A model generated the notes under the pieces. It did no database searches. It saw only the letters and a list, made by a program, of their open reading frames with translations, and had not been told where the DNA came from. Shown here piece by piece: positions 1 through 7,207 of a DNA stretch of 7,207 nucleotides. Numbering within the stretch: the first letter of the stretch is position 1; each line of letters starts with the position of its first letter. The DNA comes from a virus (taxonomy: Duplodnaviria > Heunggongvirae > Uroviricota > Caudoviricetes): the IMG/VR virus record IMGVR_UViG_2585427757_000003, one strand, 5' to 3'. The position numbers were made by a program, and so were the translations under genes.

Positions 1-278
1 TGAACGTGTACTGCAGTAATGGCTGGGTGGAAATCGACAACAACATCGCAGAGAACGCCTTACGGGGAGTGGCCGTAGGCCGGAAAAACTGGCTGTTCGC
101 GGGTTCCGACAGCGGTGGCGAACATGCGGCGGTGTTGTACTCGCTGATCGGCACATGCCGTCTGAACAATGTGGAACCAGAAAAATGGCTGCGTTACGTC
201 ATTGAGCATATCCAGGATTGGCCGGCAAACCGGGTACGCGATCTGTTGCCCTGGAAAGTTGATCTGACCTCTCAGTAA
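1..278 (+). CDS. IS66-family transposase, C-terminal fragment (5'-truncated by window edge); stop TAA at 276-278
   Basis: The ORF runs in from the window edge with no true start. Its translation ...NALRGVAVGRKNWLFAGSDSGGEHAAVLYSLIGTCRLNNVEPEKWLRYVIEHIQDWPANRVRDLLPW matches, from memory, the conserved C-terminus of IS66-family TnpC-type transposases. An IS terminus follows about 30 nt downstream. Confidence 0.8.
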   Translation, partial: NVYCSNGWVEIDNNIAENALRGVAVGRKNWLFAGSDSGGEHAAVLYSLIGTCRLNNVEPEKWLRYVIEHIQDWPANRVRDLLPWKVDLTSQ

Positions 279-308
279 ATATCAATACGGTTCTGGCGAG
301 CCGCTTAC
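1..308 (+). mobile_element. Right end of an IS66-family insertion sequence (partial; rest lies left of the window)
   Basis: A transposase C-terminus is followed by 279-308 atatcaatacggttctggcgagccgcttac, which ends in ...TTAC (reverse complement GTAAGCGGCTCGCCAGAACC...), consistent with the GTAA-type terminal inverted repeats of IS66 elements. Lambda-like sequence (ccgtggaatgaacaATG) resumes directly at 308/309. Confidence 0.6.
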
Positions 309-321
309 CGTGGAATGAACA

Positions 322-841
322 ATGGAAGTCAACAAAAAGCAGCTGGCTGATATTTTCGGTGCGAGTATCCGTACCATTCAGAACTGGCAGGAGCAGGGAA
401 TGCCCGTTTTGCGAGGCGGTGGCAAGGGTAATGAGGTGCTTTATGATTCTGCCGCCGTCATAAAATGGTATGCCGAAAGGGATGCTGAAATTGAGAACGA
501 AAAGCTGCGCCGGGAGGTTGAAGAACTGCGGCTGGCCAGCGAGGCAGATCTTCACCCCGGAACACTTGAATTTGAGCGCCATCGCCTGACTCGTGCTCAG
601 GCGACGGCGCAGGAACTGAAAAATGCCAAAGAATCGGCTGAAGTGGTGGAAACCGCATTCTGTACTTTCGTGCTGTCGCGTATAGCAAGGGAAATATCCA
701 GTATTCTCGACGGTATTCCTCTGTCGGTGCAGCGACGTTTTCCTGAGCTGGATAACCGGCATATTGATTTCCTGAAACGGGATATCATCAAAGCCATGAA
801 CAAAGCAGCCGCGCTGGATGAACTGATACCGGGGTTGCTGA

Positions 842-867
<26 letters not shown>
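322..867 (+). CDS. nu1: Terminase small subunit (lambda gpNu1-like), 181 aa
   Basis: The translation MEVNKKQLADIFGASIRTIQNWQEQGMPVLRGGGKGNEVLYDSAAVIKWYAERD... is near-identical to lambda Nu1 as I recall it, including the N-terminal winged-HTH region. Length and position immediately upstream of A fit. Confidence 0.93.
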
Positions 868-4551
<3,684 letters not shown>

Positions 4552-4571
<20 letters not shown>

Positions 4572-5871
4572 TCTCCCGCATATTGCCAGCATGGCTTTTA
4601 ATGAGCCGCTGATGCTTGAACCCGCCTATGCGCGGGTTTTCTTTTGTGCGCTTGCAGGCCAGCTTGGGATCAGCCGCCTGACGGATGCAGTATCCGGCGA
4701 CAGCCTGACTGCCGGAGAGGCACCCGCGGCGCTGGCGTTATCCGGTGATGATGACGGACCACGACAGGCCCGCAGTTATCAGGTCATGAACGGCATCGCC
4801 GTGCTGCCGGTGTCCGGTACGCTGGTCAGCCGGACGCGGGCGCTGCAGCCGTATTCGGGAATGACCGGTTACAACGGCATTATCGCCCGTCTGCAACAGG
4901 CTGCCAGCGATCCGATGGTGGACGGCATTCTGCTGGATATGGACACACCGGGCGGGATGGTGGCGGGAGCATTTGACTGTGCTGACATCATCGCCCGTGT
5001 GCGAGACATAAAACCGGTATGGGCGCTGGCCAACGACATGAACTGCAGTGCAGGTCAGCTGCTTGCCAGCGCCGCCTCCCGGCGTCTGGTCACGCAGACC
5101 GCCCGGACAGGCTCCATCGGCGTCATGATGGCTCACAGTAATTACGGTGCTGCGCTGGAGAAACAGGGCGTGGAAATCACGCTGATTTACAGCGGCAGCC
5201 ATAAGGTGGATGGCAACCCCTACAGCCATCTACCGGATGATGTCCGGGAAACACTGCAGTCCCGGATGGATGCAACCCGCCGGATGTTTGCACAGAAGGT
5301 GTCGGCATATACCGGCCTGTCCGTGCAGGCTGTGCTGGATACCGAGGCTGCAGTGTACAGCGGTCAGGAGGCCATTGATGCCGGACTGGCTGATGAACTT
5401 GTGAACAGTACCGATGCGATCACCGTCATGCGTGATGCACTGGATGCACGTAAATCCCGTCTCTCAGGAGGGCGAATGACCAAAGAGACTCAATCAACAA
5501 CTGTTTCAGCCACTGCTTCGCAGGCTGACGTTACTGGCGTGGTGCCAGCGACGGAGGGCGAGAACGCCAGCGCTGCGCAGCCGGACGTGAACGCGCAGAT
5601 CACCGCAGCGGTTGCGGCAGAAAACAGTCGCATTATGGGGATCCTCAACTGTGAGGAGGCTCACGGACGCGAAGAACAGGCCCGCGTGCTGGCAGAAACC
5701 CCCGGTATGACCGTGGAAACGGCCCGCCGCATTCTGGCAGCTGCACCACAGAGTGCACAGGCGCGCAGTGACACTGCGCTGGATCGTCTGATGCAGGGGG
5801 CACCGGCACCGCTGGCTGCAGGTAACCCGGCATCTGATGCCGTTAACGATTTGCTGAACACACCAGTGTAA
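4552..5871 (+). CDS. C: Head maturation protease / scaffold (lambda gpC-like, S49-type serine peptidase), 439 aa, GTG start
   Basis: GTG at 4552-4554 is preceded by GGAGGAG at 4541-4547 and begins VTAELRNLPHIASMAFNEPLMLEPAYARVFF..., matching the lambda gpC N-terminus. Starting here gives 439 aa, the lambda gpC length. The upstream in-frame ATG at 4417 would add an extension that just reads the B 3' end in another frame. Confidence 0.85.
5266..5871 (+). CDS. nu3: Scaffolding protein (lambda gpNu3-like), in-frame internal start within C, 201 aa
   Basis: In lambda, Nu3 is translated from an internal in-frame start in the 3' part of C. The ATG at 5266-5268 (MDATRRMFAQKV...) sits at the equivalent offset (714 nt into C). 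This is inferred from gene architecture; no strong Shine-Dalgarno is visible. Confidence 0.5.
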   Translation: MDATRRMFAQKVSAYTGLSVQAVLDTEAAVYSGQEAIDAGLADELVNSTDAITVMRDALDARKSRLSGGRMTKETQSTTVSATASQADVTGVVPATEGENASAAQPDVNAQITAAVAAENSRIMGILNCEEAHGREEQARVLAETPGMTVETARRILAAAPQSAQARSDTALDRLMQGAPAPLAAGNPASDAVNDLLNTPV

Positions 5872-5880
5872 GGGATGTTT

Positions 5881-6213
5881 ATGACGAGCAAAGAAACCTT
5901 TACCCATTACCAGCCGCTGGGCAACAGTGACCCGGCTCATACCGCAACCGCGCCCGGCGGGTTGAGTGCGAAAGCGCCTGCAATGACCCCGCTGATGCTG
6001 GACACCTCCACCCGTAAGCTGGTTGCGTGGGATGGCACCACCGACGGTGCTGCCGTTGGCATTCTTGCAGTTGCTGCTGACCAGACCAGCACCACACTGA
6101 CGTTCTACAAGTCCGGCACGTTCCGTTATGAGGATGTGCTCTGGCCGGAGGCTGCCAGCGACGAGACGAAAAAACGGACCGCGTTTGCCGGAACGGCAAT
6201 CAGCATCGTTTAA
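5881..6213 (+). CDS. D: Head decoration protein (lambda gpD-like), 110 aa
   Basis: The translation [110 protein letters not shown] matches lambda gpD. I chose ATG 5881 over the ATG two codons upstream (5875) because it gives the 110-aa lambda length. Confidence 0.9.
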
Positions 6214-6230
6214 CTTTACCCTTCATCACT

Positions 6231-6255
6231 AAAGGCCGCCTGTGCGGCTTTTTTT
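6231..6255 (+). terminator. GC stem-loop plus T-run between D and E (terminator-like hairpin)
   Basis: GCCGC (6235-6239), loop CTGT, GCGGC (6244-6248), then TTTTTTT (6249-6255), with an AAA run before the stem. This is an intrinsic-terminator-like structure between D and E; whether it terminates under Q-antiterminated late transcription is unknown. Confidence 0.4.
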
Positions 6256-6268
6256 ACGGGATTTTTTT

Positions 6269-7207
<939 letters not shown>

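Follow-up and report, generated by a model that had tools for sequence, protein, structure and literature searches.

An IS679-type insertion junction just upstream of Nu1 in a degraded lambda-like prophage, and apparently recurrent IS66-family insertions close to the same site

Introduction

In phage lambda, cosN comes first, then the cosB elements R3-I1-R2-R1, and then the small terminase gene Nu1, which starts at bp 191. The small terminase subunit (TerS) binds cosB and positions the large subunit (TerL) on cosN next to it; the spacing that is critical lies between cosN and cosB, not between cosB and Nu1. What should we think, then, of a lambda-like prophage in which an insertion sequence (IS) ends a few bases before the Nu1 start codon? 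Has the IS landed next to an intact packaging site, has it taken the packaging site away, and does either outcome matter for the prophage?

Here we analyze one such case. The window, by which we mean the whole stretch of DNA that was analyzed, is the complete 7,207-bp draft contig JOQW01000080.1 of assembly GCA_000714295.1. Between its two ISs, the genes Nu1-A-W-B-C-D-E' are collinear with lambda 177-6693 at 97% identity, and lambda 1-176, with cosN and cosB, is replaced by the end of an IS. What we find is ordinary: a degraded lambda-like prophage with an IS679-type insertion junction, one more case of a known kind. The junction as such is routine; the useful part, of modest added value, is the recurrence that appears when the junction is compared with those of its relatives.

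Bounds of the contig

The left end of the contig falls inside an IS679-like element, and the right end inside an IS621 element in capsid gene E. Short-read assemblies normally break inside multi-copy ISs. Because both ends of this contig lie in multi-copy ISs, it is impossible to read leftward from the window, and the rest of the IS679-like element is unassembled. The case is a reminder that short draft contigs stop at repeats, and that upstream content is not readable from them. When the gpA and portal variants of the contig are looked up as exact proteins in a gene-position index, the match is the 7,207-bp contig alone.

The end of the insertion sequence and the position of the junction

The features on the two sides of the junction are the following.

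1..278, + strand: 3' end of tnpC, an IS66-family DDE transposase, last 91 codons (PF03050 and PF13817); TAA stop at 276-278; the contig begins within the gene
279..308, + strand: right terminal region and inverted repeat of the IS679-like element, outermost bases ...GGCGAGCCGCTTAC; the same end is found in full 2,704-bp copies
309..321, + strand: residual native Nu1 leader cgtggaatgaaca, equal to lambda 178-190 and identical to the uninterrupted relative E200086
309..316, + strand: CGTGGAAT, predicted 8-bp target (lambda 178-185), based on the 8-bp duplications of IS679/ISCro1 copies in relatives
322..867, + strand: Nu1 (TerS), intact, 181 aa (Pfam Phage_Nu1, E = 1e-95); the ATG at 322 is lambda 191
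842..2767, + strand: gene A (TerL), intact length, 641 aa

On the left side, the translation of positions 3-278 matches DDE_Tnp_IS66 (PF03050) with an E-value of 1e-12 over profile positions 245-283 of 284, and DDE_Tnp_IS66_C (PF13817) with an E-value of 5e-17 over its full length. The reading frame is open across all 91 codons, and these C-terminal 91 aa are all of TnpC that the window holds. The terminal repeat closes with ...GCCGCTTAC (...GGTTCTGGCGAGCCGCTTAC) at position 308, 30 bases past the TAA stop. The reverse complement of 302-308 is GTAAGCG, which is also the outer end of all the complete IS66-family copies that we examined (loci L001, L002, L008 and L046).

E. coli 09-00049 carries a 2,704-bp tnpA-tnpB-tnpC element, and the last 308 bp of it match window positions 1-308 at 98.7% identity. 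That element is in turn 97.6% identical to full-length plasmid copies annotated as "IS66-like element IS679 family", and the name IS679 as we use it rests on the annotation of those plasmid copies, not on an ISfinder comparison. IS679 reportedly belongs to the IS66 family. With it the window element has in common the C-terminal domains of TnpC and the GTAAGCG terminal repeat; complete IS679 copies are 2,704 bp long with the organization tnpA-tnpB-tnpC, whereas the window carries just the last 308 bp. The same organization, at ~2.7 kb, is present in nearly identical copies in the relatives.

On the right side, lambda-like homology begins exactly at window position 308, which is lambda 177, a limit that holds in comparisons with >100 phages and with thousands of genomes. 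Since the IS end and lambda (C177) both have the C at 308, we set the junction at 308/309. In lambda coordinates this is 177/178, and tnpC reads toward Nu1.

The exact junction TTAC/CGTGGAAT (the slash marks the junction) was found in no other sequence among 5,426 complete E. coli genomes, the GTDB species representatives, the JGI metagenomes and IMG/VR. Searches for this junction or for its predicted left partner, described below, gave just junctions 4 bp away in the complete E. coli genomes, and in the GTDB representatives, JGI metagenomes and IMG/VR they gave none, apart from one IMG/VR contig with an insertion at the GAATGAAC site.

Position relative to cos

No packaging site is recognizable in the window. 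Allowing up to 2 mismatches, both the cosN sequence GGGCGGCGACCT and the cosB R-box CGTTTCCTTTCT have 0 matches in its whole length. In lambda, R1 is the last element of cosB; it ends near bp 166-169 and is followed by a spacer of ~24 bp up to the Nu1 ATG. The window junction falls ~10 bp beyond R1, in that spacer, before the ribosome-binding region of Nu1 and outside cosB. The leader that is left, 309-321, keeps the GGA(A) Shine-Dalgarno-like bases before the Nu1 ATG.

A first-pass annotation of this DNA had described an IS66-family element that ends about 13 nt before Nu1, with cos missing upstream of the gene in this stretch, and the TnpC domains, the GTAAGCG end, the identity to the IS679-like copy, the lambda coordinates and the cos searches all bear this out. 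It had also placed the junction where lambda carries cosB. The IS does sit directly upstream of Nu1, but its end lies in the spacer past cosB.

The sequence next to this spacer has a marked symmetry in lambda. R2 and R1 together form a perfect 16-bp inverted repeat, the right arm of which ends at ~bp 166, and the repeat folded as a single DNA strand has an energy of -21 kcal/mol (z = -4.6). In lambda (L007:109-166; the equivalent is L004:5934-5991), there is an inner GC hairpin and then CTGTTTTTG, a layout that is terminator-like. This whole layout lies ~10-15 bp upstream of the candidate IS hot spot that we discuss below.

Relatives with an insertion sequence near Nu1

An IS679-type right end that abuts the Nu1 leader is rare: it is found in 3 of the 5,426 complete genomes, namely 09-00049, OkiPb01715 and MSI001. 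Each of these has the junction GCTTAC/GAATGAACAATGG, 4 bp nearer to the ATG than that of the window.

As an example of a clean insertion, MSI001 (NZ_CP076645.1, ~2458415-2461118) has a 2,704-bp IS upstream of nohA with the 8-bp duplication GAATGAAC, and both cosN and cosB are intact, immediately to the left of the IS. MSI001 is like the window in the type of IS, in its orientation, and in its location in the spacer between cosB-R1 and the small terminase gene, and the two head modules are 97.4% identical. The differences are in the target, which is GAATGAAC (lambda 182-189) in MSI001 and is predicted to be CGTGGAAT (178-185) in the window, in the IS copies, which differ by 3%, and in the head genes of MSI001, which appear intact.

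The fourth top match, GB089, is informative when it is set beside 09-00049. In GB089 the IS lies 711 bp upstream, with the duplication ATTATTGT, and ynfO, cos and Nu1 are untouched. In 09-00049 the IS is 100% identical to that of GB089 and the left flank is identical too, and the right end of the IS is fused to GAATGAAC with no duplication. The comparison of the two sequences indicates that 09-00049 is the product of a 711-bp IS-adjacent deletion in which ynfO and cos were lost. The right junction of OkiPb01715 is the same as that of 09-00049. Both genomes are like the window in that the right end of IS679 directly abuts the Nu1 leader; their fusion point is GAATGAAC, with a demonstrated loss of cos, whereas the fusion point of the window is CGTGGAAT.

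Other genomes show the same region hit in other ways. A PICI-like satellite in E203449 has a hybrid element, IS679 at its left and ISEc8 at its right, inserted at GAATGAAC before terS; the duplication is present, and cos is intact beyond the IS. In IMGVR_UViG_2529292736_000004 (L042 and L046), IS679 occupies the same 8 bp GAATGAAC in the opposite orientation. There, cos...GAATGAAC joins the right end of one IS copy, and the left end of another copy joins GAATGAAC-Nu1; this pair, in the same orientation and bracketing other DNA, looks like a cointegrate or a composite-transposon insertion. In strains 300709 and WS4437A-1, an ISCro1 copy lies between R2 and R1 (duplication GGCTTTTT, lambda 139-146), and in EC130 one lies in codons 4-7 of Nu1 (duplication CAAAAAGC, lambda 202-209). 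In TW10828, IS679 lies within gene A. Most of the IS679/ISCro1 copies in relatives for which both flanks are readable have 8-bp target duplications.

The K-12 remnants nohA in Qin and nohD in DLP12 we take to be lambda-type small-terminase genes in defective, IS-riddled prophages, as in the window. Relatives found here are annotated as nohA or nohD, and the window differs from the remnants in that its Nu1 and A are of full length.

The satellites themselves deserve a remark. The cosN of the E203449 satellite (L005:1-10450) differs from that of lambda. The PICI-like satellites in E203449 and in CFSAN064035 (L049:1-6300) adjoin truncated lambda-like head modules, and such satellites carry a primase or a RepA helicase, an SSB, capsid and decoration genes of their own, an HTH regulator, a cos-like site and terS.

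How the junction may have arisen

Taken together, the position and the sequence of the junction make it very probable that an IS679-like element transposed into the spacer between cosB-R1 and the Nu1 start of a lambda-like prophage. The element, 2,704 bp long if complete, would have inserted with its right end at lambda 177/178. In the case of a simple insertion, we would expect a full IS flanked by an 8-bp duplication of CGTGGAAT, with cosN and cosB intact ~2.7 kb upstream of Nu1. The left junction would then be predicted to read ...GTCCGTGGAAT/GTAA(G/C)CG, where the longer flank is ...CTCTGTTTTTGTCCGTGGAAT, that is, ...TTTTTGTCCGTGGAAT joined to GTAAGCG or GTAACCG. Because the left junction lies outside the window, four things are inferred: that the IS is full-length, that it duplicated its target, what became of cos, and what the insertion does to transcription. 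A simple insertion is the most likely state, and we give it a better than even chance.

It had been proposed from the start that cos is either separated from Nu1 by a full IS or deleted. This is a fair way to put the alternatives, since relatives realize both states: a full IS with cos kept in MSI001 and E203449, and a deleted cos in 09-00049. For the window, the second state would mean that the IS was first located further upstream, and that an adjacent deletion, or a recombination between ISs, then fused its right end to the phage at lambda 177/178, with removal of cosQ, cosN, cosB and neighboring genes. We find this unlikely, but it has to be taken seriously. It has a direct precedent in the 711 bp missing from 09-00049 relative to GB089, and in the right junction that OkiPb01715 has in common with 09-00049. 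On the other hand, the three related events at the neighboring site that keep cos immediately past the IS go against a deletion, and what is contained in the window fits either state equally. The greater weight that we give to insertion rests on four or five related events.

The window could also hold a short 3' remnant of the IS rather than the end of a complete element. Remnants of this kind do exist, in many IMG/VR prophage contigs that have just the last 105 bp of IS679; the window shows 308 bp. A contig that ends inside the IS has the signature of a multi-copy repeat, whereas a remnant followed by unique DNA would normally be assembled through, and the TnpC frame stays open over its 91 codons. 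These observations make a remnant improbable.

A different kind of proposal is that the IS drives or sustains the expression of Nu1 and A, through read-through from tnpC or through a hybrid outward promoter, so that the junction would represent a rewiring and not damage. The arrangement is suggestive, as tnpC and Nu1 have the same orientation and are 43 nt apart, the native GGA is kept, and no terminator-like site was found between the tnpC stop and Nu1; on this layout, read-through from tnpC into Nu1 is possible. But no sigma-70-like promoter was found either in window 1-321 or in the full IS, and the head genes downstream are broken, which leaves no obvious benefit. We consider a rewiring quite doubtful, and the outward transcription from the IS into Nu1-A that the first-pass annotation had raised comes down to a possibility.

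Finally, an assembly chimera is scarcely credible, for although the junction is unique to this assembly and the contig is short, draft and bounded by repeats, the overlap between the IS end and the phage is 1 nt and so offers no shared k-mer that could have joined them wrongly, the sequence breaks precisely at the canonical terminus of the IS, and a near-identical case exists 4 bp away in finished genomes.

Consequences for the terminase genes and the prophage

How much would such an insertion disturb packaging? At 181 and 641 aa, Nu1 and A have their lambda lengths. Several genomes with uninterrupted prophages have intact Nu1 copies whose DNA matches that of the window at 100% identity. The Nu1 protein occurs in 8,497 index blocks; among the matches are many prophages without an interruption, and none shows an IS context. 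Terminase acts in trans and packages foreign cos DNA, as in hijacking by PICIs. Nu1 and A are intact with 13 nt of native leader, terminase is trans-acting, and the insertion does not cut cosB; the most that the junction would bring, by itself, is thus an extra 2.7 kb and some polarity in the late operon.

This bears on three of the initial claims about the locus. To say that Nu1 and A have been uncoupled from the site that terminase recognizes is an overstatement, as TerS and TerL act in trans and a clean insertion leaves cosB whole. The supposed loss of late read-through finds no support either, since the IS points the same way as the late operon and its terminator-like sites are not in excess relative to shuffled sequence; by analogy with established lambda biology, it is plausible that a Q-modified polymerase would read across the IS. 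The third claim was that of a decaying prophage. The prophage is indeed defective, but on other grounds, which are an IS621 insertion in the major capsid gene (E::IS621) and a patch in the portal gene. The remaining features of the window are as follows.

2764..2970, + strand: gene W
2967..4571, + strand: portal gene B, 534 aa
4552..5871, + strand: gene C / Nu3, S49 peptidase and scaffold
5881..6213, + strand: gene D, head decoration
6269..6826, + strand: gene E, major capsid, which ends after ~186 of 341 codons at an IS insertion
6827..7207, + strand: left end of an IS621-family (IS110) element; transposase start at 7019; the contig ends within the transposase

The IS621 junction at 6826/6827 is lambda 6692-6693, and in the complete relative CFSAN064035 a CT dinucleotide is found on both sides. 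The junction is common to 11 complete E. coli genomes, at 98.6-99.4% identity. Because these 11 genomes have the same junction, we regard E::IS621 as an old, inherited lesion.

In the portal gene, ~38 nt at ~3126-3163 are replaced by unrelated sequence, with a net gain of 2 nt relative to lambda and to E200086. A +1 insertion near 3194, ~30 nt past the patch, restores the frame, and the codons in between are read out of frame. We considered that the patch could be a small local inversion, and this is unsupported.

Complete portal and major capsid genes are thus not what the window has: E is cut at ~codon 186, and B carries the +2/+1 compensated frameshift patch. The prophage is defective, and E::IS621 is the decisive lesion. 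The death of the prophage would come mainly from the splitting of E by IS621, and the portal patch probably adds to the defect.

IS621 is known as the IS with a "bridge RNA" recombinase. In the window, a non-coding left end of 192 nt (6827-7018) precedes the transposase start, and this left end would presumably encode the bridge RNA.

A possible recurrent IS66-family target

The question that goes beyond this contig is why so many IS66-family insertions are found at nearly the same place. The recurrent sites are these.

L002, 5597-5604 and 8309-8316
L005, 7163-7170 and 9882-9889
L001, 8309
L042, 1486-1493
L046, 2739-2746
L050 and L051

At least four apparently independent IS66-family events fall on the identical 8 bp GAATGAAC, in both orientations; among them are one clean insertion, one deletion next to the IS, one hybrid IS and one double IS that resembles a cointegrate. 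The event in the window lies 4 bp upstream of the GAATGAAC site, and the window event and the two ISCro1 events are within ~70 bp of sequence (lambda 139-209). The IS copies at GAATGAAC differ from each other by 3.5-8%, and their flanks by 1-3%.

Could all the events at GAATGAAC come from a single ancestral insertion that was spread by recombination? As the sole source we reject it, because the insertion in IMGVR_UViG_2529292736_000004 has the opposite orientation, because the ISs are more divergent than their flanks, and because GB089 and 09-00049 form a deletion series. The independence of the events is something that we infer, and the region was chosen on purpose, which introduces an ascertainment bias. 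Given that an event lands in the 70-bp region, we estimate, assuming independence, a probability of ~0.007 for at least 3 of 7 events to fall on one position.

The flanks of other copies tell us how selective these elements are. A set of 91 distinct right flanks of IS679/ISCro1, taken from phage contigs (L009-L131), is very diverse, with weak positional biases. Position 1 is a G in 36 of the 91, position 3 is an A or a T in 78 and a G in 3, and position 5 is an A in 47. Positions 9-11 tend to be T-G-C (39, 37 and 42 of 91, respectively). We reject a strict target consensus, given that the biases are weak and that the Nu1 site does not fit at positions 9-11. The string GAATGA starts 3 of the 91 sites vs. 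0.02 expected, which is suggestive.

Is lambda 178-189 (12 bp), or more loosely ~139-209, a preferred target of IS679/ISEc8/ISCro1-type elements in lambda-like prophages and in the PICI-like satellite? We see the case for and against as evenly balanced. What might guide the elements to such a hot spot is the 16-bp R2/R1 palindrome next to it, or DNA bent by IHF or terminase. Alternatively, the spacer could be a permissive slot in which insertions survive, since an IS can sit at few other positions of the late operon and spare both cos and every gene, and this survivorship is as good an explanation as targeting. An IS66 hot spot at cos/Nu1 was not described in any paper that our literature searches returned.

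Either answer would be of some use. The choice of target by IS66-family elements is poorly characterized, and here distinct copies hit the same 8 bp or a few bp away, at the boundary between packaging site and terminase. If this is targeting, the locus offers a concrete substrate for a study of IS66 target selection; if it is selection, the lambda late operon has here a slot that tolerates insertions. The insertions would also be a recurrent route to prophages in which cos and terminase are split, or in which cos is lost after an adjacent deletion.

A last observation concerns the IMG/VR contigs. A conserved 105-bp remnant of the IS679 right end, followed by GATGCATG... or GATGCATGAGAATCACTAATAG..., is found in L009, L010, L014, L017 and ~25 more IMG/VR loci, and is presumably one old, widely inherited truncated copy.
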